A stretch of 64,000 nucleotides of DNA from a virus (IMGVR_UViG_3300042294_003246), one strand, 5' to 3'; positions 6,225 to 58,608 are shown, numbered from the stretch's first letter. The notes: generated by a model not told the origin, from the sequence alone. Made by a program: numbers and translations.

Positions 6225-6248
6225 TATTTTTTTCATATATTTACCACT

Positions 6249-6851
6249 ATGAAAGCGATATTCTTGGATCATGATGGTGTAATTTGTCTCTCTAATAACT
6301 GGGCTGGACGATCAAAGAAATGGGCAAAATACCGTTCAGCAAATCCTGACAGTAGTAGGGAAAAGAAAGACGCCCCTGTATTTGTTCGATTTGACGACTT
6401 TGATAAAAAGGCAATTAAAATCCTTAATGAGATTATTGAAGAGACAGGATGTGAGATTGTTGTGAGTTCTGATTGGAGACTTCATGCAAATTTAGAAGAA
6501 CTTGGAGATTACTACATCAGTCAAGGTATTATTAAACGACCAATTGCCTTTACTGATATATTCAAAGACATCTTTCCTAAAGAATGGAACGCTTTTAGAT
6601 TTCGTGCTGATCTAGAACTAGAAAGAAGTATGGAAATTAATCATTGGTTAGATAACCACCCTGAAATAACTCATTGGGTTGCTGTTGATGATTTAAACAT
6701 GAGTTTAGAGTTTTTATCAAAATACTTTTCAGATGGCGAATCTGATAAAAATCCTGGGTTATCTAATTTTGTGTTAACACCAAGATCAAGTGAAGGTATT
6801 AAACAATCTGGAATTAAAGAAAAAATAATTAAATATTTGAAAGATGAGTGA
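6249..6851 (+). CDS. HAD-superfamily phosphatase (Swiss Army Knife RNA-repair-like HAD)
   Basis: IFLDHDGV, IVVSSDWR, WVAVDD motifs; paralogue of 18645. Confidence 0.8.
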   Translation: MKAIFLDHDGVICLSNNWAGRSKKWAKYRSANPDSSREKKDAPVFVRFDDFDKKAIKILNEIIEETGCEIVVSSDWRLHANLEELGDYYISQGIIKRPIAFTDIFKDIFPKEWNAFRFRADLELERSMEINHWLDNHPEITHWVAVDDLNMSLEFLSKYFSDGESDKNPGLSNFVLTPRSSEGIKQSGIKEKIIKYLKDE

Positions 6852-14174: not shown

Positions 14175-14479
14175 AAAGATTAATTTTGTATTCACCTTTA
14201 ATCATTATGATGTTATTTAATGTTTTTGCAAGTTTATACTCCAAAAATTTAACATCTTTTTTAATATCAATAATACTAATAGTATTTTTTTACTTTTTTT
14301 ATACAAAAAACACAAACAAATGAAAATAGAACACGACGGAGATATTTATGAAACGGTAATAACTAAACCAATTTTGGAAGGTGATTACTATTACGATTGT
14401 ATGACCCATGAAGTCAAAAAATGTAAAACCTACATTTGTTTTGATCCATGGTCACTAAAAATGGAAATAATAAAAGAAC

Positions 14480-19989: not shown

Positions 19990-20303
19990 GTGAAACAACA
20001 AAACAAAAAGTAAAAATGATTATGGTCCAAGAAAAACCATATATCGTATCGTTAGAGAAAATCGAAATCGGTGATAATGTTATAGTTACAGTTGCAGGTC
20101 AACACGGATCACTTATAAAATGTGAAAACGAGACAATTTATAATTTGGTCACACAAAATAAACTTTCTTCAAATCAGGCGTATAAGGTCTTCATGGAACC
20201 AGAAAACATTAAATTTCAAGCAGATCAAATTGAAAAGATCTTGGAAAATGATGGGTTAATGGACGTTGAGTTTGAGAATGGAGTATATAAATACAGCATA
20301 TGA
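19986..20303 (+). CDS. Hypothetical protein
   Basis: ORF; its 3' end recurs as a fragment at about 29335-29408. Confidence 0.7.
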   Translation: MSETTKQKVKMIMVQEKPYIVSLEKIEIGDNVIVTVAGQHGSLIKCENETIYNLVTQNKLSSNQAYKVFMEPENIKFQADQIEKILENDGLMDVEFENGVYKYSI

Positions 20304-20409
20304 CAAACGTTTTAGAAACTTATGTTCATCTATATGGAATATTATTTGTAATCAACATAATCGGGTTTTATTTACTCTATAGATATTTTAAGAAAAGAAA
20401 AAAGAAATA

Positions 20410-20625
20410 ATGGCTTATATTGAACACAACTTCTTTCCCTTAAAAGTTTGGGTTAGAAATGAATACATGTATCAACATAAAAAAGGACTTGGTGAATTGA
20501 CACCAGGAGTTATAATCTCTGTTAGATGCATGCCAGGTCAAGCGGCACTATTTCAGGTGTTATTGGAAAATGGTGTTTTAAGAGACAAACTCCCAAGTCA
20601 TGCTTTATGGTTAAGATCAAGATAA
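20410..20625 (+). pseudogene. Truncated copy of the 29512 gene
   Basis: Matches the first ~66 aa of ORF 29512 up to KLPSHAL, then diverges and stops. Confidence 0.75.
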
Positions 20626-20696
20626 ATTTATTTTGAACGAAAAGTTTAGTATAAATACCTATTGTCTGAACTTTAAAAAAATCTTATATTTGTATT

Positions 20697-21014
20697 ATGG
20701 AAAAAGTTATTATTGAAAAAGATAAATTACGCAAATGTGTGATCTTGGAAAAAGATGGTGAATATGTATTTCGTTCAGGACATGGAGAGTTCCACGAAGA
20801 TGTTGCAAATAGATCCAAAGAACTTGAACCAGAATTAAAGGATTGGAGAATTCTTGGTGGTGGAAGAGTTAGATGGTCTGATCTTGGAATTAGAGTATAT
20901 GGACGATCAATTGATTATGGTTATATGGATAAAGAGATCGTGGAAGAACTTGTTTCAGAGTTCGCAAAAGAAAATGGTGTTGAATTTACTAACGATACAG
21001 GAATAGGATATTAA
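20697..21014 (+). CDS. Janus/Ocnus family (PHPT1-like phosphohistidine phosphatase) protein
   Basis: EFHEDV, ILGGGRV, IRVYGRSIDYG match the PHPT1 pattern EYHADI / LGGGRI / IHVYGYSMAYG as recalled. Confidence 0.65.
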   Translation: MEKVIIEKDKLRKCVILEKDGEYVFRSGHGEFHEDVANRSKELEPELKDWRILGGGRVRWSDLGIRVYGRSIDYGYMDKEIVEELVSEFAKENGVEFTNDTGIGY

Positions 21015-21015
21015 A

Positions 21016-21585
21016 ATGAAAAATCCATCAGGAAAAAAATTAGATAAGATTTTGTTCAAACTATTTGACCAAATGATTGAAGGTGTTGACCAATACAATC
21101 ATAGTGGTAGTTTATGGATCATCTTTACCAATGAACGACAATGGGTTGTTGAATATACCGAAGGAGGAACTCTATGGTATAACTACAAACTATTCAAAAA
21201 TGAAATGGAATTGGTTGGTATGGATTGCGTTGAAAATAAAGAATACATAACCAGATGGTTTGAATATAGATTTTTGAATAAACCAAAGGTTGATAAAACT
21301 TGGGACAATCCGGTAGATGTGTGGTATCAAATTGAAGACACCATTCAAAATGGGGTGAAGAACACCAAGGTTAGGTCCGCATTGCGCAGGATATCAGTTG
21401 AAGATACCATTCAAAATGGGGTGAAACACACCGGCGGAAAATTGGCTTCGCTGGCCGACCTGGTTGAAGACACCATTCAAAACGGGGTAAAGGAGACCCA
21501 AGAGTGGCGTTTGGATGCGACTCATTATATTATAGACACAATTGAAAATGGAGTGAAACAAACAAAACGAAGTTATGATGGTTAA
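21016..21585 (+). CDS. Paralogue of 9980 with in-frame repeat-spacer units
   Basis: MKNPSGKKL N-domain plus xEDTIQNGVK units. Confidence 0.8.
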   Translation: MKNPSGKKLDKILFKLFDQMIEGVDQYNHSGSLWIIFTNERQWVVEYTEGGTLWYNYKLFKNEMELVGMDCVENKEYITRWFEYRFLNKPKVDKTWDNPVDVWYQIEDTIQNGVKNTKVRSALRRISVEDTIQNGVKHTGGKLASLADLVEDTIQNGVKETQEWRLDATHYIIDTIENGVKQTKRSYDG

Positions 21586-21702
21586 AGAAAACAGAGAACG
21601 AAATATGTCGTTGAAAATGGGGTGAAACACACTACAGGAACATCAACTGACTTACGATATAAAAGGGTTGAATATACCATTCAAAACGGAGAAAAAATTA
21701 AA
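21331..21702. CRISPR. CRISPR-like array: repeats at 21331, 21397, 21463, 21529 and degenerate 21598, 21667
   Basis: 36-nt repeats; spacers 30,30,30,33,33 nt; first three spacers 47-63% GC; array continues past the ORF stop. Confidence 0.7.
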
Positions 21703-21706
21703 TAAA

Positions 21707-22897
21707 ATGAATAATCCATCAGGAAAAAAATTAGAGAAACTTGTCTTTGGGTTGTTTGACCAAATGATTGAAGGTGCAGACAAGTATATTACAGAACAAG
21801 GTTCAACTTGGTTGATCTTTACCGAAGACAAAAGATGGGTGGTTGAATTCACAAAAGATAAAACTTTGTGGTTCAACTATAACCTATTTCAAAATGAGTT
21901 AGATCTAGTCAGTAAGGACTGCACTCAAGAAAGAGATTTGATCAAGAACTGGTTTGAATCAAGATTTTTGGGTATTGATGTGGTTGAGGAAAGTTTAAGC
22001 ACTGCTGGAAAACCATTGAAGGTTAAAGATACCATTCAAAATGGGGTGAAACACACTTGGGATTTAAATGCGGATGAAATTTCTGCAGTTAAAGACACCA
22101 TTCAAAATGGGGTAAGACACACCGATTATTTTGAATATACTAATAATACCTTAGTTGAAGATACCATTCAAGAGGGGGTGAAAGAAACCAATTACAAAAT
22201 TGGTTACCGAAAAGGTGGTATTGAAATCGCAATTCAAAATGGTGTAAAAGAAACACGAACATTCAATTCACCACCAATTAAATACATTGAAGACACCATT
22301 CAAAATGGGGTGAAAGAAACAACACCTAGTGGTTATTTGGGTTCAATGGAGATGAAAGGGAAAATAGTTCATCAAATTGAATCTCCAAAACAAAATAATG
22401 AGGTTGAAGACACCATTCAAAATGGGGTAAGACACACCGAAGTAGATGGGATGAGGATAAGGAGTGGGGTTAAGGACGCCATTCAAAATGGAGTAAAGGA
22501 CACTGTGTTAGCAAAAACGGATAGATTAGTCGGTATTGAAGACACCATTCAAAGTGGTATTAAAGACGTATCTGATAGACCATTCACATTTGGATCAAGT
22601 ATTGATGATGCCATTGAAAATGGTGTTAAAGAAACTAGAGAGGTAACATTCTTGAACCAAATGTTTATTGAAGAAACAATTGAAAAAGTTACACCAGATG
22701 GTGGAGTTGAAATTCCTTCTGATATGAAAGTTGGAACTGGATTGATGAATATGGTAAAAGAATTACGTGATAATGAATGGAGAACATTTGAACATCACGA
22801 TAATTGGATTAAAAACGAACATTATCCAAATCCAACATTTGAACAACAATTTGATACAGGTAATGCTTATAAAGAAATGTTAAAAACTAAAATTTAA
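21707..22897 (+). CDS. Paralogue of 9980 with ~10 repeat units and unrelated C-terminal tail
   Basis: Start placed at ATG 21707 (MNNPSGKK) by paralogy. Confidence 0.8.
   Translation: MNNPSGKKLEKLVFGLFDQMIEGADKYITEQGSTWLIFTEDKRWVVEFTKDKTLWFNYNLFQNELDLVSKDCTQERDLIKNWFESRFLGIDVVEESLSTAGKPLKVKDTIQNGVKHTWDLNADEISAVKDTIQNGVRHTDYFEYTNNTLVEDTIQEGVKETNYKIGYRKGGIEIAIQNGVKETRTFNSPPIKYIEDTIQNGVKETTPSGYLGSMEMKGKIVHQIESPKQNNEVEDTIQNGVRHTEVDGMRIRSGVKDAIQNGVKDTVLAKTDRLVGIEDTIQSGIKDVSDRPFTFGSSIDDAIENGVKETREVTFLNQMFIEETIEKVTPDGGVEIPSDMKVGTGLMNMVKELRDNEWRTFEHHDNWIKNEHYPNPTFEQQFDTGNAYKEMLKTKI
22022..22702. CRISPR. CRISPR-like array: repeats at 22022, 22088, 22154, 22220, 22286, 22403, 22469, 22535, 22601, 22667
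   Basis: Eight 30-nt spacers and one 81-nt; repeats degenerate toward the right. Confidence 0.65.
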
Positions 22898-22901
22898 AAC
22901 T

Positions 22902-23552
22902 ATGATGAAAATTGAAGCAAAAAAAGACGGTAAAGGAAACATTGTAATATCGGAAGATTCCTTTGAAATGATACTGGCTTGTTTAGACAATCAAAAATTT
23001 GTTGGTGAACAGCCACAAAATGGTGATTCGCTTTCGGTAGGCGAAGACAACTATTGGAAAGGACAAGAAGATATTCAAAACACTATTGACCATTATAATA
23101 GAGAATGTAGAAAAATATTACATCAAAAATATGTTTTAAGAACAGAATGTGATGGTTATTTTCTTGCAAAAAAATACGAACATCAAACAGAAGATGCTGA
23201 ATGGACTGGTGAAGATGTTGGATTAGTATATGAACTATTCAAAGATACAAGAATAATTTATAATGAAACAAGAGATTTATTACCATTGGATGGCTCGGAA
23301 AAAATTATAGAGGGAACTGAACCTATTGGTAAAACGAAAGATGGTTGGATTGCAGTTAAACCTGAACCAACACCTTGGTTAATTGAAAGACCATTAAGGT
23401 ATGATTATCAATATTTGACAATTTCAGAAGACGGTAAAACAAATAGAACTTGGAAACAAGATGAAATTAACAAAATTCAAGAATTATTTAATGGTGGGGG
23501 AGAAAAAAGAAAAGAAAAAGATATTACAGACGAACCTTCAATCGAAGACTAA
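22902..23552 (+). CDS. Hypothetical protein
   Basis: 216-aa ORF ending just before the first attC. Confidence 0.7.
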   Translation: MMKIEAKKDGKGNIVISEDSFEMILACLDNQKFVGEQPQNGDSLSVGEDNYWKGQEDIQNTIDHYNRECRKILHQKYVLRTECDGYFLAKKYEHQTEDAEWTGEDVGLVYELFKDTRIIYNETRDLLPLDGSEKIIEGTEPIGKTKDGWIAVKPEPTPWLIERPLRYDYQYLTISEDGKTNRTWKQDEINKIQELFNGGGEKRKEKDITDEPSIED

Positions 23553-23564
23553 ATGTAGTATTAC

Positions 23565-23658
23565 TGCTAACGTTGAAGCATTTGTGTCAGGCGGGCATAG
23601 ATGCAACTTAATATTAACCGCAAGCTGTCCGCCCGCTTGCACAAATGCAGTGTTAGCT
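23565..23658 (+). other. attC site 1
   Basis: TGCTAAC...GCATTTGTGTCAGGCGGGC / GCCCGCTTGCACAAATGC...GTTAGCT. Confidence 0.85.
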
Positions 23659-23669
23659 GCCGTTTAATT

Positions 23670-23876
23670 ATGGAAAGAACAATTAGAACATTAAAAGAAA
23701 TGCGTGAAAAGGCTGAAAGGTCTTTTATTGAAAACTCTATCATTGTCCACAGGGCAAGTTTGGACAGTCCAATACCCGATACAAAGTCGGATTTGGAAAT
23801 GATTATTGAGTTGAACCAAGCAATATCAATTTTGCAAAATGCTACTATGGCGAAGTCTGTCGTAAATGGCAGCTAA
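23670..23876 (+). CDS. Cassette 1 ORF (hypothetical)
   Basis: ATG 23670; TAA lies in the R'' box. Confidence 0.7.
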   Translation: MERTIRTLKEMREKAERSFIENSIIVHRASLDSPIPDTKSDLEMIIELNQAISILQNATMAKSVVNGS

Positions 23877-24001
23877 CGAAAAAGGCTTTGTGCAGGTGGG
23901 GATTTGGAACACGAAAGTTTCAAATCAGTACAAAAGCCTATTAGAATTACTGCTGTTTAATTTAGCAATTCAGCCCCACTTGCACAAAACCGATGTTACC
24001 T
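23871..24001 (+). other. attC site 2
   Basis: AGCTAAC...TTTGTGCAGGTGGGG / CCCCACTTGCACAAA...GTTACCT. Confidence 0.85.
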
Positions 24002-24058
24002 GCCGTTTTTTGTCGGTAACTCACAGATTTGATTTATAAACAATTAAAATAAAGTAAA

Positions 24059-24418
24059 ATGGAAAATTTAAAAGTAGTAAAAATTGATTCAGATTCATTA
24101 GAATTTGATAATGGAATGATTTTATTTTCAGACCACGACCAACAATGCTGTGAGCATCACTATTTGTCTTTGTCAGATTTGACATTGGATGATTTTAAAG
24201 GATTGGAATTTGATTTGTCAAATGATGATTTCTTTGAAAGAATAGAAGATTATGGAATAGCCTTAAAGCCTAAAAATGGACATCCTGTTAGAATACCTGG
24301 TTATGGCTCAAACAACGGCTACTATTCATCAAATCTTGCTTTGATTATAACTAATACTGATGGTCGTGGTGTATTCAAGCAATATGATATTACTGAATGT
24401 CAAGAATGGAACGATTAG
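24059..24418 (+). CDS. Cassette 2 ORF (conserved phage hypothetical)
   Basis: HDQQCCE...GYGSNNGYYS motif. Confidence 0.75.
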   Translation: MENLKVVKIDSDSLEFDNGMILFSDHDQQCCEHHYLSLSDLTLDDFKGLEFDLSNDDFFERIEDYGIALKPKNGHPVRIPGYGSNNGYYSSNLALIITNTDGRGVFKQYDITECQEWND

Positions 24419-24437
24419 CGGTCTGTCTTAAAATGGC

Positions 24438-24569
24438 AGGTAACGGTACTTGTGTAAATTTCAGTGCCGTAAAATTAGTATAAACTTTAAATTAAAAATA
24501 AAATGAAAAATCAAGTAGAAAATTATCAACAAAGCACTGCACAGGCATTGAATTTACACAATGTTAGCA
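24438..24569 (+). other. attC site 3 (contains start codon of next ORF)
   Basis: AGGTAAC...TTGTGTAAATTTCAGTGCC / GGCATTGAATTTACACAA...GTTAGCA. Confidence 0.85.
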
Positions 24570-24736
24570 GTAGTGCCAAAGGTGGACTTCGTAAAATTAA
24601 AGATGCAGAGCAACCTTGCCTACATCCTGACCATAACCCACCGATGCACATTTATTTAACAGCAGGAACTTATGAATATACCTGCCCTTCTTGTGGCAAG
24701 GTTACGACATTTACAGTACCATTGATTACGTTTTGA
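24503..24736 (+). CDS. Cassette 3 ORF (small CxxC protein), starts inside attC3
   Basis: CLHPDHNPP...CPSCG. Confidence 0.7.
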   Translation: MKNQVENYQQSTAQALNLHNVSSSAKGGLRKIKDAEQPCLHPDHNPPMHIYLTAGTYEYTCPSCGKVTTFTVPLITF

Positions 24737-24745
24737 TGGCATTAC

Positions 24746-24830
24746 TGCTAACGGTTTCAAATATGAGAAGTAAATTTTACCTATAAAAATTTGGAAAATC
24801 AAAATTTATTTCTTATATTTGTTGTTATAA
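24746..24830 (+). other. attC site 4
   Basis: TGCTAAC...CAAATATGAGAAGTAAATTTT / AAAATTTATTTCTTATATTTG...GTTATAA. Confidence 0.85.
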
Positions 24831-24870
24831 GTATGTATTATTTTTGTTTTACCTTATAAAAAAATTAAAT

Positions 24871-25146
24871 ATGGAAAATTATATTATTAAAACCCCTGAA
24901 ATAGAGTTTAATAAAGAAGATGTATCAGATTATAAGTTCTTAGGTACATTTAAAGATGTTGATAGTGGAATACCTAAAGTAATTGTATCAAAAATAGAAG
25001 ATACATTAAAAAATTTAGATTCTAATTTGAAAGTCACACCAATGATGGTTGACCCAGAAACTTTAGATATTGTATTCGGTATATTAGAAACAAATGAAGA
25101 AAGTGTTAAGTTAAAATATCATATAAAAATCACAAAACAAAAATAA
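24871..25146 (+). CDS. Cassette 4 ORF (hypothetical)
   Basis: ATG 24871. Confidence 0.65.
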   Translation: MENYIIKTPEIEFNKEDVSDYKFLGTFKDVDSGIPKVIVSKIEDTLKNLDSNLKVTPMMVDPETLDIVFGILETNEESVKLKYHIKITKQK

Positions 25147-25152
25147 TATTAC

Positions 25153-25273
25153 TTATAACGGTTGCAAATATAAGCAGTTATTAACGAAACTTAATTAAAA
25201 GAACAAAATTAAATATTAACCAACAACATTTATTTGGAAGTAATGAAATAATTGCTTATATTTGTTGTTATAA
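25153..25273 (+). other. attC site 5
   Basis: TTATAAC...CAAATATAAGCAGTTATT / AATAATTGCTTATATTTG...GTTATAA. Confidence 0.85.
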
Positions 25274-25285
25274 AACGTTATTTAT

Positions 25286-25486
25286 ATGGAAATAAAATTT
25301 TATTGGAACGGAAGTTTTGCTGGTACTAATCACAGTATGACTATAAATAAAAAAGAGATTAGATTAGGTGGAGTTGTTTCAAACGAAGATGAAGCAAAAC
25401 TGGAAGCAATTGAAATACTCAAAAGAGATTATAATATTGACTACAATGTTGATGAAATAAAATTTGAGTGGGGTGGTCGTTTATAA
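25286..25486 (+). CDS. Cassette 5 ORF (hypothetical)
   Basis: ORF fills cassette. Confidence 0.65.
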   Translation: MEIKFYWNGSFAGTNHSMTINKKEIRLGGVVSNEDEAKLEAIEILKRDYNIDYNVDEIKFEWGGRL

Positions 25487-25490
25487 TGTT

Positions 25491-25622
25491 TTATAACGGT
25501 TGAGTATAACCGAAGGTGGGGATTAAAAGTGCTAAACCCAGACTTACCTACAAAAGTAAATTAGAAGCACAATAACTGATTTTGGGAACTACCGCCCCAC
25601 TTTTGGTTATACTTTGTTAGCG
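25491..25622 (+). other. attC site 6
   Basis: TTATAAC...GTATAACCGAAGGTGGGG / CCCCACTTTTGGTTATAC...GTTAGCG. Confidence 0.85.
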
Positions 25623-25642
25623 GTATGTAAAATTTACGTATT

Positions 25643-25828
25643 ATGAAAGAAATAGAATTGTTAATCAGAAGAGAAAATGCTTTATCTAAGCAAAATTTGT
25701 TATACCAATTATTAGGTAAATTTGGTGATGATTTACCTAAACAGATACAAGATGCTGTAAGATTGATGGCAGAAGAAGAAGGTAGAGAGTATAACAAATT
25801 AGGTACTAAGGTTGCGGAACGGTTGTAG
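25643..25828 (+). CDS. Cassette 6 ORF (hypothetical)
   Basis: ORF fills cassette. Confidence 0.65.
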   Translation: MKEIELLIRRENALSKQNLLYQLLGKFGDDLPKQIQDAVRLMAEEEGREYNKLGTKVAERL

Positions 25829-25841
25829 TAAATTTTATTAC

Positions 25842-25924
25842 CGCTAACGTTTTGCGGCTTTGTGTCAGGCTGCGAAGCGTTGGCATTGAGCGGTCGGGCA
25901 GCTTGCACAAAACCGCTGTTATAC
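25842..25924 (+). other. attC site 7
   Basis: CGCTAAC...TTTGTGTCAGGCTGC / GCAGCTTGCACAAA...GTTATAC. Confidence 0.85.
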
Positions 25925-25960
25925 GCTGGCACGGTTAATTAACAACAAAATTTAATTGAA

Positions 25961-26338
25961 ATGAATATAGATGACTTATTTAAAATCGAACCACAAGAGC
26001 CATACAAGATGAGCCAAAAAGAGTTCGTTGAAAAAACAAAATCTGTTTTAGAAAAAATCTACAATGCTTATTCAAAAGGATGGCAAAGTAGGGTTTTGAG
26101 AGATGGAGAACACCCCGAAGAAAGTGTATGTGATAAATGCACTGGTTGTGGTGTTTTCTTGGAAAATGGAGAAGAAAGAGATTGTGTTCAAGATAGAGAA
26201 CAAGGAGATTGTTTTCACAGATTTTGTGATTACGAACAGGTAGGAATGGATTTAGAAACTCATCTTGCAGATATATCCGATTTACTTTCGGTAGATGAAA
26301 TTGTCAATACGGAGCAGAATGGTAGTGCTTGCGTATAA
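25961..26338 (+). CDS. Cassette 7 ORF (Cys-rich hypothetical)
   Basis: TAA in R'' box. Confidence 0.7.
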   Translation: MNIDDLFKIEPQEPYKMSQKEFVEKTKSVLEKIYNAYSKGWQSRVLRDGEHPEESVCDKCTGCGVFLENGEERDCVQDREQGDCFHRFCDYEQVGMDLETHLADISDLLSVDEIVNTEQNGSACV

Positions 26339-26386
26339 CGTCCGATGATAAACAATCGTTTTAATGTTGTTTATCATTTGTTATGT
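26333..26386 (+). other. attC site 8 (short type)
   Basis: GTATAACGTCCGATGATAAACAATCGTTTTAATGTTGTTTATCATTTGTTATGT. Confidence 0.85.
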
Positions 26387-26495
26387 GTAGTAATTTTGTG
26401 GGTGGAAATTCTTAATTTGAACTATTTATATATAAAATCTCAGATATATTCAGTTCTGAGATTTTATATATAAACTTAAAATAAAAGACAGAACT

Positions 26496-26768
26496 ATGAA
26501 AGAGAATAGAATTAAGAGATTTAAAAACTTCTTAAAAGAAGGAAAATCATATTTAGATGGTTCTGGTGAAAGAGGATTTTCACCGATGGAAATCAAACAA
26601 CTAAATATAGGTGATAAAATAACTTTTCACTTTAATAAATCTTTAATGGACGGTGTTATAACAGATAAAGAAGAACTTCAAAACGGAGACACTTTGTTTA
26701 GTATAGAAACAGAAAAAGGAGTATTGAAGAAAAGTCATAGAAATTTAGAAGTTTATAAAATTTATTAG
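26496..26768 (+). CDS. Cassette 8 ORF (hypothetical, IKRFKNFLKE leader)
   Basis: ORF preceded by TATTTAT motif. Confidence 0.7.
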   Translation: MKENRIKRFKNFLKEGKSYLDGSGERGFSPMEIKQLNIGDKITFHFNKSLMDGVITDKEELQNGDTLFSIETEKGVLKKSHRNLEVYKIY

Positions 26769-26790
26769 TAGGTGGGTAAAAAATTATTAC

Positions 26791-26924
26791 ACATAACGGT
26801 TGGGCGGTTGGCGTTCGTTGCCGACTTTGGAACACGAAACTTTAATTTAAAAACAAAATTTGATATGGAAAACAACACTTCAATTAACCACGAAAACGGC
26901 AATGACGCTAACCGCTTGTTAGCG
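26791..26924 (+). other. attC site 9 (contains start codon of next ORF)
   Basis: ACATAAC...GCGGTTGGCGTTCGTTGCCG / CGGCAATGACGCTAACCGC...GTTAGCG. Confidence 0.85.
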
Positions 26925-27146
26925 GCTGGTGCGGATTTAATCGGAAAGTTTTACGAAATGTTAAATCTTGATGATTCCGTAATGCACCGTTTTAAAATAA
27001 AGCATGTACGCACAGAAACGACTCCTGCTATTGACCATTCCGATGGCAGTCATTCACCAAGCAAAACACATGTTTTGGTTTCGGCAGAAGGTTCAGGGTG
27101 GTTTCGTTTGTATGGCGGTAAAACTGATAGAGTGGTGGAGGAGTAG
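26865..27146 (+). CDS. Cassette 9 ORF, starts inside attC9
   Basis: ATG 26865, MENNTSINHENGNDANRLLAAG. Confidence 0.65.
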   Translation: MENNTSINHENGNDANRLLAAGADLIGKFYEMLNLDDSVMHRFKIKHVRTETTPAIDHSDGSHSPSKTHVLVSAEGSGWFRLYGGKTDRVVEE

Positions 27147-27153
27147 CACTTGC

Positions 27154-27207
27154 CGCTAACGTCCGATGATAAACAATCGTTTTAATGTTGTTTATCATTT
27201 GTTATAA
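27154..27207 (+). other. attC site 10 (short type)
   Basis: Same core as attC8. Confidence 0.85.
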
Positions 27208-27224
27208 GTTGTTTTTTATTATAT

Positions 27225-27641
27225 TTGAATATGGTAGATTTAATAGTAAAGGAAATTGATGACTTTTATATGAATGAATTCAATCTTTTAAAAGAAGAAG
27301 TTCAAAAAAACATAAAAGTTGAGATTATAGATAGTTCAAAATTTGGGGATATAGGTGGGAGATTTAATTTTTTGAAACAGATAATATATGTAAATTCAGA
27401 ACAATCTAATGAGAATATGTTTCTAACACTTCTACATGAATATGGACATTTTCTAACTTTTAGAGATTATATCTATGTATATAATGTTTGTCCTTACGAA
27501 TATGGTAGAAATGTATTAAAACGAGAATTAGGTGCGTATTATCATGGGTGGAAATTCATAAAATCTAACTCAATTGGAGTTTCAAAAAATAAATGGAGAG
27601 AACACCATATTCAAATATTAAAAGATTATGAGATATTATGA
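27225..27641 (+). CDS. Cassette 10 ORF, HExxH metallopeptidase-like (ImmA/IrrE-like)
   Basis: LTLLHEYGH and downstream E..AY motif. Confidence 0.65.
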   Translation: MNMVDLIVKEIDDFYMNEFNLLKEEVQKNIKVEIIDSSKFGDIGGRFNFLKQIIYVNSEQSNENMFLTLLHEYGHFLTFRDYIYVYNVCPYEYGRNVLKRELGAYYHGWKFIKSNSIGVSKNKWREHHIQILKDYEIL

Positions 27642-27648
27642 AAATAAC

Positions 27649-27722
27649 TTATAACGTTTTGCACATACACGCTGTGAGCGTTGTATTGAGGGCAGGGAAA
27701 TAGCGTGTATGTGCTGTTATAG
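27649..27722 (+). other. attC site 11
   Basis: TTATAAC...GCACATACACGCT / AGCGTGTATGTGC...GTTATAG. Confidence 0.85.
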
Positions 27723-27774
27723 GCTGTATTTAAAAGTTTTTAGCGAAGGAATTAACAATTAAAATAAACATAAA

Positions 27775-28332
27775 ATGAAAAAAGTAAAAGAAGCATACGA
27801 TGAAATTTTAAAAGCATTACATAAACACAGAGAAATTTGCGTTTTTGATGTAAGTGAATTGGAAAGAAAAGCCAAAACACATTTATTTGGACTTGAACTG
27901 AAAGAAGTTTACGGGCTAAATATTGACTCTAAACAAATTAAAAATATGGATTGGGTTAGGTTTGGAGAATATAGGGCGATTGGGATGTGGGGCGAAAAAC
28001 ACAGAAGAACTATAATTTGGAGCGTTGATGGAATACAGCCCGAAGATGAAATGTTATTACAAATATGCTTTCCAACTGGTGCATACATTTTTGGAGAAGA
28101 TTATGCCGTAAATTTCTTTCAAAAGTTTTGGCTTGAATTAAAATCATTTACGCCTGATTACATAGACGAAGTAAATCTCGGATTATATTGGAAATTAGAA
28201 AACGCAAAAGATGTTTTTAACTCGTTTGATTTGCTTTTAAAAAAGTACTACGAACTTAATAAAGAAGATGCGAAACAAAGGAGAATTGAAAAGATGAAAA
28301 AAGAACTTGAGCAACTTGAAAACTCTAAATAG
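27775..28332 (+). CDS. Cassette 11 ORF (hypothetical)
   Basis: 185-aa ORF. Confidence 0.75.
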   Translation: MKKVKEAYDEILKALHKHREICVFDVSELERKAKTHLFGLELKEVYGLNIDSKQIKNMDWVRFGEYRAIGMWGEKHRRTIIWSVDGIQPEDEMLLQICFPTGAYIFGEDYAVNFFQKFWLELKSFTPDYIDEVNLGLYWKLENAKDVFNSFDLLLKKYYELNKEDAKQRRIEKMKKELEQLENSK

Positions 28333-28362
28333 TGCAATGGCAAAAAAACTTTTAAATATTGC

Positions 28363-28416
28363 CTATAACGTCTGATGATAAACAATCGTTTTAATGTTGT
28401 TTATCATTTGTTATAT
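28363..28416 (+). other. attC site 12 (short type)
   Basis: Same core as attC8/10 with one C>T change. Confidence 0.85.
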
Positions 28417-28492
28417 TCAGTTATTTTTTCAATTATTTCAAAAAACCGTTTTTTTTTTATTAATATATAGATTATAAAAAAAAATTAAAACT

Positions 28493-28825
28493 ATGAGAAA
28501 ATTAAAATTTTTAAAAACATTTGAATCTCTTTTGGAAGATGATTTCTCTAAAGAAAATATATTGGACAATATTTTAAGTAAAATAGAGAAAGAATTTATG
28601 AATTCACCTATTAAATTTACAGAAATACTTAAAAGAGGAGATAATAGTATCTACATTAAATATGAAATTGACTGGGAGATGCCAGAGACTATGGAAGATT
28701 GGTGGGATTATGAGGAATTTATAGAAAAACATTTAAATAAATTATCAGATAATTTGAATATATTTGAATATAATTATGATTTAACTAGTATTAGAATATA
28801 TCCCCGTAAAAATAAAAATAATTGA
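28493..28825 (+). CDS. Cassette 12 ORF (hypothetical, LKTFESLLE leader)
   Basis: ORF fills cassette. Confidence 0.7.
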   Translation: MRKLKFLKTFESLLEDDFSKENILDNILSKIEKEFMNSPIKFTEILKRGDNSIYIKYEIDWEMPETMEDWWDYEEFIEKHLNKLSDNLNIFEYNYDLTSIRIYPRKNKNN

Positions 28826-28955
28826 ATATAACGGTCGCAGATATGCCCAGTTTGGGATTAAATAGTATAAACTTTAAATTAATATAAAATGAACAAAGAA
28901 GAACAAAATTTGAATAACGCAGAGAACCCCAAATTGGATATATCTGATGTTAGCG
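28826..28955 (+). other. attC site 13 (contains start codon of next ORF)
   Basis: ATATAAC...CAGATATGCCCAGTTTGGG / CCCAAATTGGATATATCTG...GTTAGCG. Confidence 0.85.
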
Positions 28956-29125
28956 GTAGTTATTTATGGATTCCTGTAACGGAGCGACTACCTGAAACCG
29001 AAGATTACTATGCAGTTAGATTTGAAAACGGCATTGAAGATGAAAAACCTTTTAGGATTAGACCAAAGAAAAATATCTTCGGTTTTATGACTATGGAGAA
29101 AGTTACACATTGGGCGGTTCTATAA
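28889..29125 (+). CDS. Cassette 13 ORF, DUF551-like, starts inside attC13
   Basis: WIPVTERLPE...VTHWA. Confidence 0.7.
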   Translation: MNKEEQNLNNAENPKLDISDVSGSYLWIPVTERLPETEDYYAVRFENGIEDEKPFRIRPKKNIFGFMTMEKVTHWAVL

Positions 29126-29129
29126 TTAC

Positions 29130-29184
29130 CGCTAACGTTTTGCGTGTATAAAATCGTTTTAATGTTTTATACACGCTGTTAGCA
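29130..29184 (+). other. attC site 14 (terminal)
   Basis: CGCTAAC...GCGTGTATAAAA / TTTTATACACGC...GTTAGCA. Confidence 0.85.
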
Positions 29185-29404
29185 GTAGTACGGTAATTAA
29201 CCACAAATGCTCATTCGGAGAACTGAACCTTTTTCTTTTCTTTTTTGTGGGTTGGACAAAATAAATTTGAAAAATTTAAAAATAAATAATATGAAATTAG
29301 AAACAATTGAAAATGGAGTTAAAGATGGGATTTGATAAAAAAATATTAGAAAATGATGGGTTGTTGGATGTTGAATTAGATAATGGGGTTTACAAATATA
29401 GTCT

Positions 29405-29512
29405 ATGACGTTACTTGAAACATATGTACATGTGTTTGGGATTTCTTTAACAATAATATTATTGGGAGGATATCTTACATACAGATACTTTAAGAAAAGA
29501 AAGAAAAAATAA
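29405..29512 (+). CDS. Small membrane peptide (35 aa)
   Basis: MTLLETYVHVFGISLTIILLGGYLTYRYFKKRKKK; diverged copy near 20300-20410. Confidence 0.5.
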   Translation: MTLLETYVHVFGISLTIILLGGYLTYRYFKKRKKK

Positions 29513-30144
29513 TGGCTTACATTGAACATAATTTTTATCCTTTAAAAGTTTGGGTTAGAGACGAATACTTTTATCAGGGTAAAAATGGAAAGGGTAATTT
29601 CACTCAAGGGATTATTATTTCTGTGAGATGTATGCCAGGTCAAGCGGCCTTATTTCAAGTTCTATTAGATAATGGGGTTATGAGAGATAAACTCCCGTCA
29701 CATGCACTACTAACAAAACCTGAATTACCAAATCCAGATCTTCCATTTCATTATTTACAATTATGGAATTGTTTTTCATATAATTTCACACTTCTTAAAT
29801 TAAATTTTGTTTCAGGTGGACCTGTTGAAGTTTATATGAAAGATAGAAAATTTTATTCGGGTAAATATTTTGCCACTATAAATTGGGGTTCAAATGATAT
29901 TAATACTGATATCACATTGTCCGAAGATCCAATGGAACATAAATCCCATCACATAATATTATTAGATAACGGACAAATTGCCTTACAACCTAATAATAGA
30001 ATTAAATGGTCCGAACCAAGTTTTGTGACCAAACCCTTTCCTGAAAAACCAGATTACCTCGTTTGTAATGAATTTTATAATGTGGAAGACCATGAAAAAT
30101 GGCACACAGAAGACAGTGAGAGAATGTTTTATGATAACGAATAA
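29512..30144 (+). CDS. Conserved phage hypothetical (MAYIEHNF family)
   Basis: 210-aa ORF; truncated duplicate at 20410. Confidence 0.75.
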   Translation: MAYIEHNFYPLKVWVRDEYFYQGKNGKGNFTQGIIISVRCMPGQAALFQVLLDNGVMRDKLPSHALLTKPELPNPDLPFHYLQLWNCFSYNFTLLKLNFVSGGPVEVYMKDRKFYSGKYFATINWGSNDINTDITLSEDPMEHKSHHIILLDNGQIALQPNNRIKWSEPSFVTKPFPEKPDYLVCNEFYNVEDHEKWHTEDSERMFYDNE

Positions 30145-30194
30145 TAACATATCTCATTGGGCGATCAACGCCATAATACACAAATTCATTTATT

Positions 30195-30416
30195 ATGAAA
30201 ACACTTGATTTACATGGAGTTAAACACGCTGACGTTGCCAAGTTAATGGATCAATTTATTTGGGAACAGATGAATAAAAAATCTAAGGAGATTGAAATCA
30301 TCACCGGCATAAGCCAAACGATGAAAGATGTGGTCATCAAAAATCTAAAAGATTATGAGTTCACCTATAACGAAGCGTGGAACAACCCTGGTAAGTTGAT
30401 AGTAAGTTTAGTTTAG
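30195..30416 (+). CDS. Smr/MutS2-like small domain protein
   Basis: TLDLHG...IITG...NPG. Confidence 0.65.
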   Translation: MKTLDLHGVKHADVAKLMDQFIWEQMNKKSKEIEIITGISQTMKDVVIKNLKDYEFTYNEAWNNPGKLIVSLV

Positions 30417-34707: not shown

Positions 34708-35556
34708 ATGATTATCTATAAAATAACTAACAATCTTAATAATAAAATCTATATCGGTCAAGATAGAAATAATAACCCATCTTACTTCGGAAGTGGTAAA
34801 AAAATACAAAGAGCCATAAAAAAATATGGTAAAGAAAATTTTGTAAAAGAAATTTTAGAAGAGTGTGTTGATGAAAATCATATGAATGAAAGAGAAGTTT
34901 ACTGGATATTAAAATATAATAGTCAAGATAGAAAAATTGGTTATAATATAAGTAATGGTGGTAAAGAGGGTGACAGACAAATAGGTCAAGACATTACTAA
35001 AAACGGAATTTATAATTATTGGGTTGAAAAACACGGTCAGGAAGAAGCTGATATTAGAAAAAAACAACAAATTGAAAAAATCATAAAACATAACAAGGAA
35101 AACGGCACAGAACTAACTAAAAAAGGTCGTTATAGTTTATGGTTAGAAAAATATGGTAAAGAAGAGGCCGATAGAAGACATTTTGAATGGAGATTAAAAA
35201 TATCACAACATCAGCAATATAAATTAGAGAATGGGTGGAAGCATACTGACGAAGCCAAAGAAAAAATATCAAAGGCGGGTAAAGGTAGGAAACTATCTGA
35301 AGAAACAAAAAATAAAATGAGAAAACCTAAACCAAAAGGGTTTTCAGAAAAACTATCAAAATTGAAAAAAGGTGTGTCAACAGGATCATCAAAAAAAAGA
35401 TTACAGGTTTTACAATTTGATTTAAATGGTAATTTACTTTATACTTGGGATAGTATAACAGAAGTTGAAAAACAATTAAAAATATTCAATATATCTGCGG
35501 TATGTAAAGGAAAACAAGAAACCGCTGGTGGTTATAAATGGGAATATAAAAAATAA
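34708..35556 (+). CDS. GIY-YIG homing endonuclease with NUMOD3/NUMOD1 motifs
   Basis: IIYKITN..N.KIYIGQ; KHTDEAKEKIS; AGGYKWEY. Confidence 0.88.
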   Translation: MIIYKITNNLNNKIYIGQDRNNNPSYFGSGKKIQRAIKKYGKENFVKEILEECVDENHMNEREVYWILKYNSQDRKIGYNISNGGKEGDRQIGQDITKNGIYNYWVEKHGQEEADIRKKQQIEKIIKHNKENGTELTKKGRYSLWLEKYGKEEADRRHFEWRLKISQHQQYKLENGWKHTDEAKEKISKAGKGRKLSEETKNKMRKPKPKGFSEKLSKLKKGVSTGSSKKRLQVLQFDLNGNLLYTWDSITEVEKQLKIFNISAVCKGKQETAGGYKWEYKK

Positions 35557-35561
35557 CGAAA

Positions 35562-36656
35562 ATGAATAATTTAGACAAACAATACCAAGATTTACTTCAA
35601 GATATTTTGGATAATGGGGTAAAAAAAGAAACAAGAAATGGAGGAACCATCAGTGTTTTTGGTCGTCAGATCAGACACAACATGAGTGAAGGATTTCCTT
35701 TACTCACAACCAAGAAAATGTTTTGGAAAGGAATTGTAACTGAATTGATTTGGTTCCTACGTGGTGATACGAACATTAAATACCTTATAGATAATGATTG
35801 TCATATTTGGGACGGTGATGCTTATAAGAACTACGGTCAAAAGATTATCTCTGGAGGTTACCAAAATTTAGTTGCAATAGGATGGCCTAGTACACAAGAA
35901 GAGTTCATCAACAAAATCAAAACAGATGATGAGTTTGCTAAGAAGTGGGGAGATTTAGGTCCTGTGTATGGTAGACAATGGAGAGCGTGGGGTGGCTTTG
36001 ATAAAAAACCTTCAGGATGGAATCATGGGGCTGTTACTCATTTTTCTGAAGTGCCTAAACTTGACCAGATAAAAAATCTTATTCACGACCTTAAAACAAA
36101 TCCTGATAGCCGAAGATTGATGGTTACAGCTTGGAACCCATCGGAATTGGACCAGATGACTCTTCCACCTTGTCATTATGGATTTCAAATTTATACAAGA
36201 GAGTTCAGTTTACAGGAAAGAAAAGACATATATGATAAATCGTCTTATGTTAAAGATATTTTTCCGACAGATGAAAATGGATGGAATAGTTTATTCAATG
36301 ATTGTAGTATACCAACCAGGGCAATCTCTTTAATGTTCAATATGAGAAGCAATGATGTTCCGCTCGGGCTTCCATTTAATTTGGCTTCATATGGGTTACT
36401 TTTGATGATATTGGCAAAAGAGGTTAATATGGTACCTGAAGAATTGATTTCAAATATGGGAGATTGTCACATATATCTAAATCAAATTGATGGTGTGAAA
36501 GAACAATTAACAAGAGAACCATTTGAATTACCAACTCTTAATCAGTTCCCCACCTATGAAGGTTCAAGACCATCAATAGAATCTTATACTATTGGCGATT
36601 TCACACTTAAAAATTACAAATCACACCCAAGTATAAAAATGCCACTTTCTAACTAA
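35562..36656 (+). CDS. thyA: Thymidylate synthase
   Basis: FPLLTTKK, LGPVYGRQWR, LPPCH, RSNDVPLGLPFN, GDCHIY. Confidence 0.97.
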   Translation: MNNLDKQYQDLLQDILDNGVKKETRNGGTISVFGRQIRHNMSEGFPLLTTKKMFWKGIVTELIWFLRGDTNIKYLIDNDCHIWDGDAYKNYGQKIISGGYQNLVAIGWPSTQEEFINKIKTDDEFAKKWGDLGPVYGRQWRAWGGFDKKPSGWNHGAVTHFSEVPKLDQIKNLIHDLKTNPDSRRLMVTAWNPSELDQMTLPPCHYGFQIYTREFSLQERKDIYDKSSYVKDIFPTDENGWNSLFNDCSIPTRAISLMFNMRSNDVPLGLPFNLASYGLLLMILAKEVNMVPEELISNMGDCHIYLNQIDGVKEQLTREPFELPTLNQFPTYEGSRPSIESYTIGDFTLKNYKSHPSIKMPLSN

Positions 36657-36711
36657 CTTTTTATTATTTGAGGATATTTATATTAAAGGATAAACCTTAA
36701 AGTAAATCAAT

Positions 36712-37545
36712 ATGAAGAAATTTTTAGTTTATGAAATAAAAAACAACATTAATGGTAAATCTTATGTCGGACAATATAGTGGATTATCATTTGAAAAATA
36801 TTTTGGGAGTGGAAAGTTGATTAAGTTAGCCATAAAAAAATATGGGTTAGAAAATTTCTCTAAAACTATTTTAGAAGAGTGTTCTAATAAAGATGAGTTG
36901 AATGAAAAAGAAATTTTTTGGATTGATAAACTCAAAACAATTGCAAACGGCTATAATTTAACTGAAGGTGGCACTGGTGGAGATTTATCTGAATTTATTA
37001 AGTATGATGAGAATTGGGTTGAAAACCAAAGACTCTCAACAAAAAAGTATTGGGACAATATCAGTGATGATGAAAGAAAAAAAAGAAGTGAAAGTGTATC
37101 TGGCGAAAAAAATGGAATGTATGGTAAAGAAGGATTTTGGAAAGGTAAGAAAATACCTAAAGAAATTGTAAAAAAATCATTAGATAATAGAAGAAGTTAT
37201 GATAAAGAACAAAATCCTAATTGGAAGGGAGGTTTAACTTATGTCTATTGTGAATGTGGTAAAAGAATAGGTTACGGTCACACTCATTGTAATAAATGTA
37301 GACCAAGAAGTAATGACGATAATCCATTTTTTGGTAAACAACATTCGGAAGAAACTAAAAATAAGTTAAGTGAAATCAGAAAAGGAACTTATAATGGAGA
37401 ACAGAATATACCAATAATAATTGATGATGTTGAATACCGTTCTGCTGGTGAGGCATCCAAAATACTTAATCTACCTATGGCAACGATAAGATGGAGGGTT
37501 TTAAGTAAAAATAAAAAATTTGACAATTACAAATACAAAGATTAA
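36712..37545 (+). CDS. GIY-YIG homing endonuclease with NUMOD3 motif
   Basis: VYEIKN.INGKSYVGQ; GYNLTEGG; KQHSEETKNKLS. Confidence 0.88.
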   Translation: MKKFLVYEIKNNINGKSYVGQYSGLSFEKYFGSGKLIKLAIKKYGLENFSKTILEECSNKDELNEKEIFWIDKLKTIANGYNLTEGGTGGDLSEFIKYDENWVENQRLSTKKYWDNISDDERKKRSESVSGEKNGMYGKEGFWKGKKIPKEIVKKSLDNRRSYDKEQNPNWKGGLTYVYCECGKRIGYGHTHCNKCRPRSNDDNPFFGKQHSEETKNKLSEIRKGTYNGEQNIPIIIDDVEYRSAGEASKILNLPMATIRWRVLSKNKKFDNYKYKD

Positions 37546-37688
37546 AATTAAATTAATATGACACACCACAATGTTTGGTTTAAAAGATGGTTTAACCCCA
37601 CGCTAAGAAAGATATTCAAAGTTGAGATATGTTCTTTAATTGATGGTGAAACTGTGATTGGGTATGGAATAAGAAAATATAAAAAGTT

Positions 37689-38372
37689 ATGTTAGGATTA
37701 AGAAAGGTTGAACCTGGTAGATGGAGAAATGATTGGATGGAGTTTTACCCTGGATTCCATAAATGGAATTTAAGATACCTACCAAGTAATGGATTAAATT
37801 GGAAATTAGATTTTTGTTTTATTTGGGGTCAATTTTATATGACATTCAAAACAAACAAACCACCAAAATATAAGGATGAAAGACCAAAATATGGATTTTA
37901 TTTTTATTCGGTAGGTAGTTGGTTTCCTGATTCATTATGGATCCATAGAGGAACAAAAAAAATAAAATGTATTGATTTACCTTGGCAATATGATTGGGTA
38001 AGAACATCCAAATTTCTAAAAGATGGAACATGGGCACACCAAACCAAAAAAAATAAAATTGATTTTTATACTCCTGAATGGAAAGAAAAAATCCATAAAG
38101 AAACACATAAATACTATTACATTCACGACGATTTGTTCCAAGATACTGAGGCCACTTGTAAGTTAGAGGAAAGAGAATGGAGACCAAGAATGTTCAGGTG
38201 GACACGACTTTTTAGAAAAGTAAGACGAAGTATTGATGTTGATTTCAGTAATCCGATTGGGAAAGGTGTTGATTCATATAAAGGAGGAACTTATGGTGCG
38301 GGACACGACACTAATAAAGGTGAGACAATTAAACAATGTCTTAAAAGAATGATGAAAGAAAGAAAATTTTAA
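37689..38372 (+). CDS. Hypothetical aromatic-rich protein
   Basis: 227-aa ORF. Confidence 0.7.
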   Translation: MLGLRKVEPGRWRNDWMEFYPGFHKWNLRYLPSNGLNWKLDFCFIWGQFYMTFKTNKPPKYKDERPKYGFYFYSVGSWFPDSLWIHRGTKKIKCIDLPWQYDWVRTSKFLKDGTWAHQTKKNKIDFYTPEWKEKIHKETHKYYYIHDDLFQDTEATCKLEEREWRPRMFRWTRLFRKVRRSIDVDFSNPIGKGVDSYKGGTYGAGHDTNKGETIKQCLKRMMKERKF

Positions 38373-58519: not shown

Positions 58520-58608
58520 AATACAAATATAGTGAAAATCTTTCAAATAATAACATAAACATCATAAACTTTCATTGGCCCAAACCTAATTATTTTTTTG
58601 TCGTATTT

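Follow-up and report, generated by a model that had tools for sequence, protein, structure and literature searches.

The outer arms of the cassette array carried by the viral DNA analysed here (a stretch of 64 kb, referred to as the window) are, judged from their sequences, the two ends of a mobile cassette of about 1.1 kb, designated Z, and not those of a resident backbone site. Z lies in the window inside out, a layout that looks like the footprint of a circular cassette entering a phage gene by ordinary recombination and not like a built-in docking site. Taking the explanation as a whole, we consider it likely that Z entered by a single crossover between a circle and an arr (repeat-array) gene at the 11-nt sequence AGAAACAATTG. 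The array itself is part of a cassette system, integron-like in kind, that is found in phages of Bacteroidota, and the phage carrying it is a giant lake phage.

Thirteen cassettes (23572–29136, plus strand) make up the array, a number that follows from the 14 attC-like sites bounding them and that is based on a site finder, a pairing matrix and predicted folds. The site finder returned exactly 14 sites, from 23568 to 29181, and none elsewhere in the 64 kb. On the plus strand, TAAC starts at 23568, 23874, 24441, 24749, 25156, 25494 and 25845 in sites 1–7 and at 26336, 26794, 27157, 27652, 28366, 28829 and 29133 in sites 8–14. In each cassette an inner palindrome is followed by GTTA and a tail, then comes the ORF, and an arm with TAAC closes the unit; the cargo is mostly unknown, with matches that include DUF7448 and a weak IrrE/M78-like one. 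As in integrons, all 14 sites are imperfect palindromes of the attC type, with an unpaired spacer and the two cores R''(..AAC) and R'(GTT..). They have TAAC...GTTA cores and an asymmetric internal loop of 4–6 nt versus 1–3 nt; a T·G pair at position 7 is conserved, and the top strand of every site is predicted to fold more stably than the bottom strand. An Rfam search of the window returned no family.

Pairing of the cassette ends follows a simple rule. At all 14 sites, and cyclically too, the arm of a site pairs best with the tail of the preceding site, i.e., the outer R-box half comes from the adjacent cassette (14/14 sites), which holds generally across other loci. Swapping in the partner end is predicted to stabilise all 14 sites by about 3 to 14 kcal/mol. 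At other loci, 8/10 or more Watson-Crick pairs are formed by 41% of the 164 distinct end pairs of cassettes, compared with 0% of same-site pairs and 1.8% of random pairs at the same threshold. The inner palindromes appear not to be stably linked to either neighbour: among 10 informative pairs of homologous cassettes, the upstream palindrome alone was kept in three, the downstream one alone in none, and neither flank in seven. An IS200/IS605-type element or a transposon with terminal inverted repeats was considered for the inverted ends and rejected, as the ends are cassette-specific and co-vary, which points to pairing and not to a common transposase site; the cassette ORFs and the 20 large window ORFs scanned included no HUH or DDE gene.

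The arm before the first site (arm 1, GTATTACTGCTAAC; 23558–23571, plus strand) complements the tail after the last site (tail 14, GTTAGCAGTAGTAC; 29178–29191, plus strand) with 13/14 Watson-Crick pairs and one G·T, and not its adjacent tail, in agreement with the first-pass annotation. When the 14 nt beyond the TAAC/GTTA core are counted, arm 1 forms 10 Watson-Crick and three G·T pairs with tail 14, versus just five Watson-Crick pairs with its own adjacent tail. Tail 14 is the best complement of arm 1 in the 64-kb window, where only two complements with at most two mismatches are found, at 29178 (one mismatch) and at 24563 (tail 3; two mismatches); shuffling predicts 0.24 (both strands). Tail 3 equals tail 14 in the raw count with arm 1, and its better partner is arm 4 (11/14). 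Ends of the GCAGTAGT class are common, and within this array tail 3 and arm 4 also belong to it.

Outside the window the same ends delimit a compact cassette. Z has tail 14 as its 5' end (R' half) and arm 1 as its 3' end (R'' half), and between them follow a conserved leader, a small ORF and the 22902 gene. It occurs in this normal order in at least four other contigs with the same ends or a 3-nt variant, and in a fifth with co-varying ends. Exact tail and exact arm are combined in L179, L180 and L181, where Z resides inside other arrays. In L003, also within an array, the arm differs in the 3 nt adjoining TAAC and is unpaired with its tail, and in L185 the Z body is the same but its two ends differ, and they do so in a co-varying manner. 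The exact 16-mer of the tail has 74 distinct occurrences in IMG/VR, of which 50 could be evaluated for the arm; the exact 14-mer of the arm lies 241–1301 nt downstream in 43 of these 50, and in none is it found within 8 kb upstream. Thus, the order in the window is unique among the evaluable tail-bearing contigs. This co-occurrence of exact ends, together with the pairing, bears out the earlier proposal that the outer arms are partners which formerly made up one attC-like site.

The homology is not restricted to the ends, as both window flanks (29162–29313 and 22672–23572) match the ends of compact Z at 83–95% identity. The 22902 gene (22902–23552, plus strand) encodes a protein of 216 amino acids of no known family and is cargo of Z in all five contigs with the compact form; members of its family are backbone genes with no sites nearby in L198 and L200–202. 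The leader (29192–29290, plus strand) follows the tail 14 sequence in at least 48 distinct IMG/VR sequences, and an alignment of 48 leaders revealed no conserved secondary structure. The inner palindrome of site 14 (29137–29177, plus strand) has its 3' half in common with the site before Z in L179, L181 and L003, and it is probably the inner part of Z's own attC.

Both reciprocal junctions of Z are present in the window according to the junction alignment. The sequence AGAAACAATTG occurs exactly twice in the 64 kb, as a direct repeat at 22672–22682 and 29299–29309, and these copies delimit the homology to compact Z, which starts at the first and stops at the second. The first copy lies in arr3 (21668–22897, plus strand), a fusion gene in which the N-domain and repeats of a resident arr gene are followed by the C-terminal domain of the Z small ORF. 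The second lies in a putative recombination scar (29291–29335, plus strand) composed of the start codon of Z and five further codons, the last arr repeat and the arr stop codon (MKLETIENGVKDGI followed by the stop). In the relative L006, the arr3 orthologue ends in KDGI plus stop and overlaps the start MGFDKKIL; the end of the scar in the window is exactly alike. This L006 orthologue is devoid of the C-terminal domain of the Z small ORF (VTPDGG domain). Z is thus circularly permuted relative to its compact form and flanked by the 11-mer as a direct repeat, which is the arrangement expected of Campbell-type integration.

Based on these features we propose the following course of events. Once the cassette is circular, its specific tail (after GTTA) and arm (before TAAC) would pair, and the circular molecule, consisting of Z alone or of Z with some or all of the 13 cassettes, would recombine once with the resident arr gene at AGAAACAATTG. 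This crossover would fuse the arr gene to the Z small ORF to give arr3, leave the 14-codon scar at 29291, and turn Z inside out, and the attC of Z would therefore come to lie in the middle. The 13 cassettes now located within this attC may have come with the circle, or they may have been added later by attC x attC recombination, presumably catalysed in trans by an Xer-like recombinase that is lacking from the 64-kb window. The pairing, compact Z in other contigs, the reciprocal junctions and the missing island in relatives are observations, whereas the circle, the order of events and the enzyme are inferences. Among the points against the circle crossover, 11 nt of shared sequence is short for homologous recombination, and the arm variant of Z in L003 fails to pair with its tail.

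The direction of events may also be reversed. The compact form of Z starts with MKLETI, which resembles an arr repeat unit, and compact Z could therefore derive by excision from a window-like arrangement. The ancestral locus would then have consisted of an arr3 gene with the C-terminal domain, the 22902 gene, attC, leader and repeat, and the two copies of AGAAACAATTG would have looped out a compact Z circle that was captured by other arrays. The geometry of the junctions is symmetrical and fits this order of events as well, and so does the occurrence of the 22902 family as an ordinary backbone gene in other phages, which means that a cassette must once have taken up the gene. However, the reverse course demands a 14-codon mini-ORF behind the leader as an ancestral feature, and it is at odds with the L006 orthologue of arr3 and with L180, where the same Z domain is encoded by a stand-alone ORF with a different N-terminus. 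Moreover, the compact form of Z is widespread, and the arrangement of the window was seen in a single phage only. We regard excision as unlikely.

A region of 360 bp is duplicated in the window: the left copy (20233–20594, plus strand) is 76% identical to 29338–29696 and contains the 3' end of the small membrane gene 19986 and the first 61 codons of a ferredoxin-like gene, the fragment of which ends as a truncated ORF (20410–20625). The right copy (29338–29696, plus strand) continues into the intact ferredoxin-like gene (29512–30144). Syntenic relatives have a single copy and lack the island of about 8.7 kb that separates the two (20595–29337, plus strand), which comprises a PHPT1-like gene, two arr genes, the 22902 gene, the cassette array and the front part of Z. 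In five of them (L006, L025, L029, L043 and L054) the sequence corresponding to window position ~20600 is joined directly to that at 29338, and no attC-like site is present at the island position. At the right junction of the island, the first eight codons (MGFDKKIL; 29325–29349, plus strand) of a 33531-like gene are joined to the 3' part of a gene-19986 copy, with the fusion point at 29349. A separate event of illegitimate recombination may have put the whole block between the duplicated 19986–29512 copies.

These relatives are also relevant to the model of the first-pass annotation, in which a resident backbone attC-like site downstream of the 22902 gene received the 13 cassettes by successive insertion, with no attI being involved. 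That the arms pair, and that the window contains neither an attI-like motif nor a recombinase, speaks for this model. Its final step may even be right, as the attC of Z would act exactly as such a site after Z had integrated. A single resident site is nevertheless contradicted by the five syntenic relatives, which have neither the island with its 22902 gene nor a site at the locus, and by the arms bounding mobile Z elsewhere. Likewise, no empty site was encountered: a search of IMG/VR for arm 1 and tail 14 around an inner length of 30–91 nt returned no such site, and this absence of an empty site with paired arms is the outcome which the annotation itself had named as refuting its model. Neither was a shorter array seen in the same phage, whose contigs are about 250–300 kb long and whose copies are 100% identical over 10.2 kb. 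Reads from 24 lake runs (2016–2024) contained 82–100% of the sampled words, which indicates that the phage retained its full set of 13 cassettes over these years. Successive insertion of the 13 cassettes looks the same as their arrival en bloc. Altogether, we consider a resident backbone site improbable.

The claim that there is no separate attI holds for the window, where no attI-like motif was detected and no recombinase was found by tblastn across the 64 kb or by Pfam searches of 20 of the largest ORFs. It does not extend to related arrays, which have an attI-like junction and a recombinase at their right (3') end. At 58 of 66 recombinase loci, a variable arm with TAAC abuts the conserved motif TAWTATATATA 49–61 nt before the recombinase gene, and arrays lie only upstream of this TAAC|TAWTATATATA junction. 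Mainly because of these junctions we assigned the cassettes their polarity, and the crossover can therefore be placed just after TAAC; the loci also illustrate the make-up of a complete platform. An array directly upstream of a gene for an Xer-like recombinase of about 266 amino acids, with the conserved junction, is present in L003 (recombinase gene at 13454–14251), L139, L147 and L169 and not in the window. The 266-residue enzyme scores 161 bits on TIGR02249 (cut-off 265), with the match in two stretches, and its best match is an Xer family.

A chance combination of left arm and right tail from two unrelated truncated cassettes that share the commonest end type, conceivable given the GCAGTAGT ends of tail 3 and arm 4 and the 74 exact tails in IMG/VR, is highly improbable because whole flanks, not 14-mers alone, match the ends of one compact cassette, and the 11-mer at which they meet is the same on both sides.

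Arrays of orphan attC sites (CALINs) are frequent, and their origin away from an integrase is still debated. The locus offers a concrete route, namely a cassette circle that recombines through its cargo and not through attC. The intact attC left in the genome might act as a landing pad, or it might carry an entire array. That Z is circularly permuted is indirect evidence for phage cassette circles in this system; if the proposed course is true, the window preserves a natural footprint of the circular intermediate, and the arr3 fusion protein illustrates that cassette traffic can remodel phage genes. It is tempting to generalise that Bacteroidota phages possess an integron-like system of their own, with an Xer-like recombinase, an attI-like site at the array's 3' end and attC sites 5' of the ORFs, whose circles also enter by recombination within cargo, thereby seeding recombinase-less arrays and making fusion genes, with the window keeping both reciprocal junctions of one such event; for this wider view we see the chances as evenly balanced.

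The term CALIN denotes attC sites, two or more in number, that are clustered with no integron integrase nearby (Cury et al. 2016, bioRxiv 10.1101/030866), and the window, with 14 sites called by the site finder and no recombinase found within 64 kb by the tblastn and Pfam searches, conforms to this definition. Classical integrons and CALINs resemble the array in having single-ORF cassettes that are separated by imperfect palindromes; these have AAC/GTT cores, contain an unpaired spacer and take their outer half from the neighbouring cassette. CALINs also share with it the absence of an integrase nearby. By contrast, the basal stem here is at least 14 bp long and cassette-specific, and the more stable fold is predicted for the top strand, the bottom strand being the one that is folded and recombined in classical integrons. 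Moreover, attC lies 5' of its ORF and the attI-like junction at the array's 3' end, unlike in integrons, where attI is found at the 5' promoter end and attC 3' of the ORF. An integron integrase with its IntI-specific extra domain was not found in the window, where tblastn returned no homologue and the 20 large ORFs showed no recombinase domain, and the related 266-aa Xer-like enzyme falls below the integron-integrase cut-off.

Phage CALINs described by Qi et al. (2023, PMC9892861) are also attC-type arrays with methyltransferase cargo in virulent phages of marine and freshwater bacteria, as exemplified by Polaribacter phage P12002L, whose CALIN contains methyltransferase cassettes. The portion of that work considered here gives few attC sites per CALIN (three in the best-described example), reports no phage recombinase or attI for them and deals neither with the pairing of ends nor with permuted cassettes. 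The site type and the leader of the window are shared by Flavobacterium phage mymlan6-1.

PeSLs are cassettes of a promoter and a stem-loop in T4-type phages that are exchanged via shared sequence homology. Like the cassettes of the array, they involve small accessory ORFs, which in the hyperplastic regions of T4-related phages are shuffled via structured intergenic elements. One promoter and stem-loop sequence recurs at the boundaries of PeSL units, whereas the flanks here differ between cassettes and co-vary within a cassette, and complete arrays are accompanied by a dedicated tyrosine recombinase.

Insertion by an integrase at 'attG' sites, outside the att sites proper (bioRxiv 10.1101/2022.09.11.507474), is comparable in that cassettes seed new genomic locations without attI. 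There, however, attC is the crossover point and is split at the junctions, whereas in the window attC remains whole in the interior and the junctions fall within an ORF. A further parallel to the layout of Z is Campbell-type integration, with an insert that is circularly permuted relative to its free form and a short crossover sequence that remains as a flanking direct repeat. The proposed event differs in that the crossover would lie in a coding repeat and not in the element's own recombination site, and in that the element would be a non-replicating cassette circle and not a prophage. Compared with these systems, the type of array is known, and the new part is the inside-out cassette.

The array at 23558-29191 consists of 14 attC-like sites, imperfect palindromes built around a TAAC...GTTA core, and 13 single-ORF cassettes, every one on the + strand. 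A simple site finder, which required TAAC and GTTA to enclose an inner stem set off by a short asymmetric loop, returned exactly these 14 sites and no others in the 64-kb window. The arm GTATTACTGCTAAC (23558-23571), at the left edge of the first site, is complementary to the tail GTTAGCAGTAGTAC (29178-29191), at the right edge of the last site, except for one G·T position. No other stretch of the window complements the arm as well as this tail does, and shuffles yielded an expectation of 0.24 matches with at most two mismatches. The arm and its own adjacent tail are not partners, pairing at 5 of the 14 positions outside the core. In a 14 x 14 pairing matrix the best partner of arm(i) was tail(i-1) at every site, also cyclically, and replacing the own flank with the partner flank lowered the predicted folding energy by about 3 to 14 kcal/mol at 14 of 14 sites. 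Based on matrix, shuffles and folds, the complementarity of the outer arms over 5.6 kb, as described in the first-pass annotation, is real. Position 7 beyond the core (e.g. 23561 with 29188) shows a conserved wobble, T in the arm opposite G in the tail, in 12 of the 14 pairs of the window and in 102 of 164 pairs elsewhere. Since at each site this wobble makes the top strand the more stably folded of the two, it may represent a strand-choice signal.

The outer arms had been interpreted as one resident attC-like site that received all 13 cassettes, an interpretation that is only partly supported. They do reconstitute one attC, but it is best explained as that of a trapped mobile cassette, Z, and not as a resident docking site. 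The exact 16-mer tail GTTAGCAGTAGTACGG is present in 92 IMG/VR stretches representing 74 distinct occurrences, most of them preceded by diverse inner palindromes. The exact arm 14-mer is located 241-1301 nt downstream of the tail (median 874) in 43 of 50 evaluable IMG/VR occurrences and within 8 kb upstream in none of the 50; thus, in one common class of cassette ends the tail normally comes before the arm. Three contigs (L179, L180, L181) carry a compact, ~1.1-kb Z between two sites of a larger array in the order tail, leader, small ORF, orthologue of the 22902 gene (22902-23552), and arm with TAAC. Leader and small ORF correspond to window positions 29162-29313 (83-95% identical) and 22672-22897, respectively. 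The Z unit of contig L003 (= L187-189) has an additional ORF and a 3-nt arm variant. In L185 the Z body is unchanged and the end pair is different (TATGCAGTGCG... and ...GCATTGCATA) with pairing kept, and because both ends were altered together this is a compensatory change. Orthologues of the 22902 gene lie in cassette Z at these five loci; more distant homologues belong to the ordinary phage backbone and have no neighbouring sites.

In at least 48 distinct sequences of IMG/VR (L088-L166), the GTTAGCAGTAGTACGG tail is followed by a leader of ~75 nt (AACCACAAATGCTCAWTCGGAGAACTGAACC, a T-rich run, GWGCGRTGG; window 29192-29290); the palindromes upstream and the ORFs downstream differ, many of the latter encoding methyltransferases. 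As no conserved RNA structure was detected in this leader, it may serve as a promoter or bind a protein. One cassette beginning with this tail and leader (L094, 758-1420) encodes an NPPY-motif methyltransferase and has an arm, ATATTGCGTATAAC, which does not match the tail and thus marks a recombinant exception to the pairing rule. Window sites 26336-26383, 27157-27204 and 28366-28413 share a nearly identical short inner palindrome that is 98-100% identical in an unrelated array (L003, 11993-12048). Inner palindromes appear to be swapped independently of cassette bodies (7 of 10 informative pairs).

How Z came to flank the array is suggested by its junctions. The compact form reads leader-ATGAAATTAGAAACAATTG-TAAAAGTTACACC..., the window junction within the repeat-array gene arr3 (21668-22897) reads ...GAAGAAACAATTG-AAAAAGTTACACC..., and the right end reads leader-ATGAAATTAGAAACAATTG-AAAATGGAGTTAAAGATGGGATTTGA. 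This right end closes with a last arr repeat and the stop of arr (ENGVKDGI*), overlapping ATGGGATTTGATAAAAAAATATTAG. In the syntenic relative L006, the arr3 orthologue, whose N-terminal domain is 89% identical, lacks the VTPDGG C-terminal domain and terminates in ...KDGI*, overlapping MGFDKKIL of the next gene. Only two copies of the 11-mer AGAAACAATTG exist in the window (22672 and 29299), and the 6627 bp separating them are accounted for by Z (~1.06 kb) and the 13 cassettes (5565 bp). The two copies are probably the reciprocal products of a single crossover between a Z-bearing circle and a resident arr gene, which would have permuted Z such that its attC became internal. The circle might have contained Z alone, with cassettes acquired later via attC x attC recombination, or have been a multi-cassette circle. 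The reverse direction, in which compact Z was born by excision, is less likely than such a capture of Z. A further illegitimate join (KKIL to ENDG at 29349) together with a 360-bp duplication would have brought the block to its present locus.

That duplication, whose copies are 76% identical, brackets the island (~20595-29337), and its left copy terminates in a truncated ferredoxin-like gene. The left junction of the island is marked by this truncated second copy of the ferredoxin-like gene (29512-30144) at 20410-20625, which retains 61 codons followed by a short read-through. Collinearity with the window extends from ~7.7 kb to 42 kb in five syntenic relatives (L006, L025, L029, L043, L054); in these, ~20600 joins straight to 29338, and their retrieved DNA contains no attC-like site. 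Of the other ~75 loci retrieved by way of the 29512 gene, few contain a site. No sequence in IMG/VR matched a pattern of arm 1, 30-91 nt (a range covering both possible ancestral inner palindromes) and tail 14. Further copies of this phage show 100% identity over 20000-30200, and each of 24 metagenome runs from the lake, dated 2016-2024, contained 82-100% of the sampled array words. The predicted relatives with an empty or shorter array were not found in IMG/VR, same-phage copies or lake runs.

The proposed absence of a separate attI holds for the window, where neither an attI-like motif nor a recombinase gene (tblastn; Pfam on 20 large ORFs) was detected, but not for related platforms, where an attI-like site lies at the 3' end. 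The L003 array terminates in a half-site (arm plus TAAC, then non-palindromic sequence) adjoining the sole tyrosine recombinase of this contig (266 aa). Among 66 evaluable IMG/VR loci with the 266-aa enzyme, 58 show a conserved TAWTATATATA, 49-61 nt ahead of the recombinase gene, that directly follows a variable arm and its TAAC. Full sites are located upstream of this gene (median of 4 within 6 kb), and no locus (0 of 66) has two or more downstream. Complete platforms thus possess an attI-like site, with crossover just after TAAC, and a cassette accordingly comprises inner palindrome, GTTA, tail, ORF, arm and TAAC. In L203-L282 this conserved junction (58 of 66 loci) continues for ~20 nt to an AATCA-type box, and arrays are on its upstream side only. 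The recombinase is Xer-like, scores below the integron-integrase cut-off, and has thousands of close relatives. The window array is an orphan array. In a 462-kb uncultured phage (L001, LR756500.1), positions 5690-6440 contain the ORF of the window's last cassette in decayed form (91% identical), its site core lost to a 3-nt deletion, and then part of the N-terminal domain of the recombinase (residues 32-104, 45% identity); this looks like a degenerating platform.

Elsewhere in the window (34708-38372 and 57245-58546), two GIY-YIG homing-endonuclease genes flank thymidylate synthase, an Acb3-like CBASS-inhibitor gene is located at 37689-38372, and a UvrC-like GIY-YIG/RNase H gene is encoded on the minus strand.

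Our literature search found no description of a permuted cassette with its ends flanking an array, nor any of a cassette captured by way of a cargo repeat. CALINs as such have been published for phages and include methyltransferase cassettes in a Polaribacter phage (PMC9892861).
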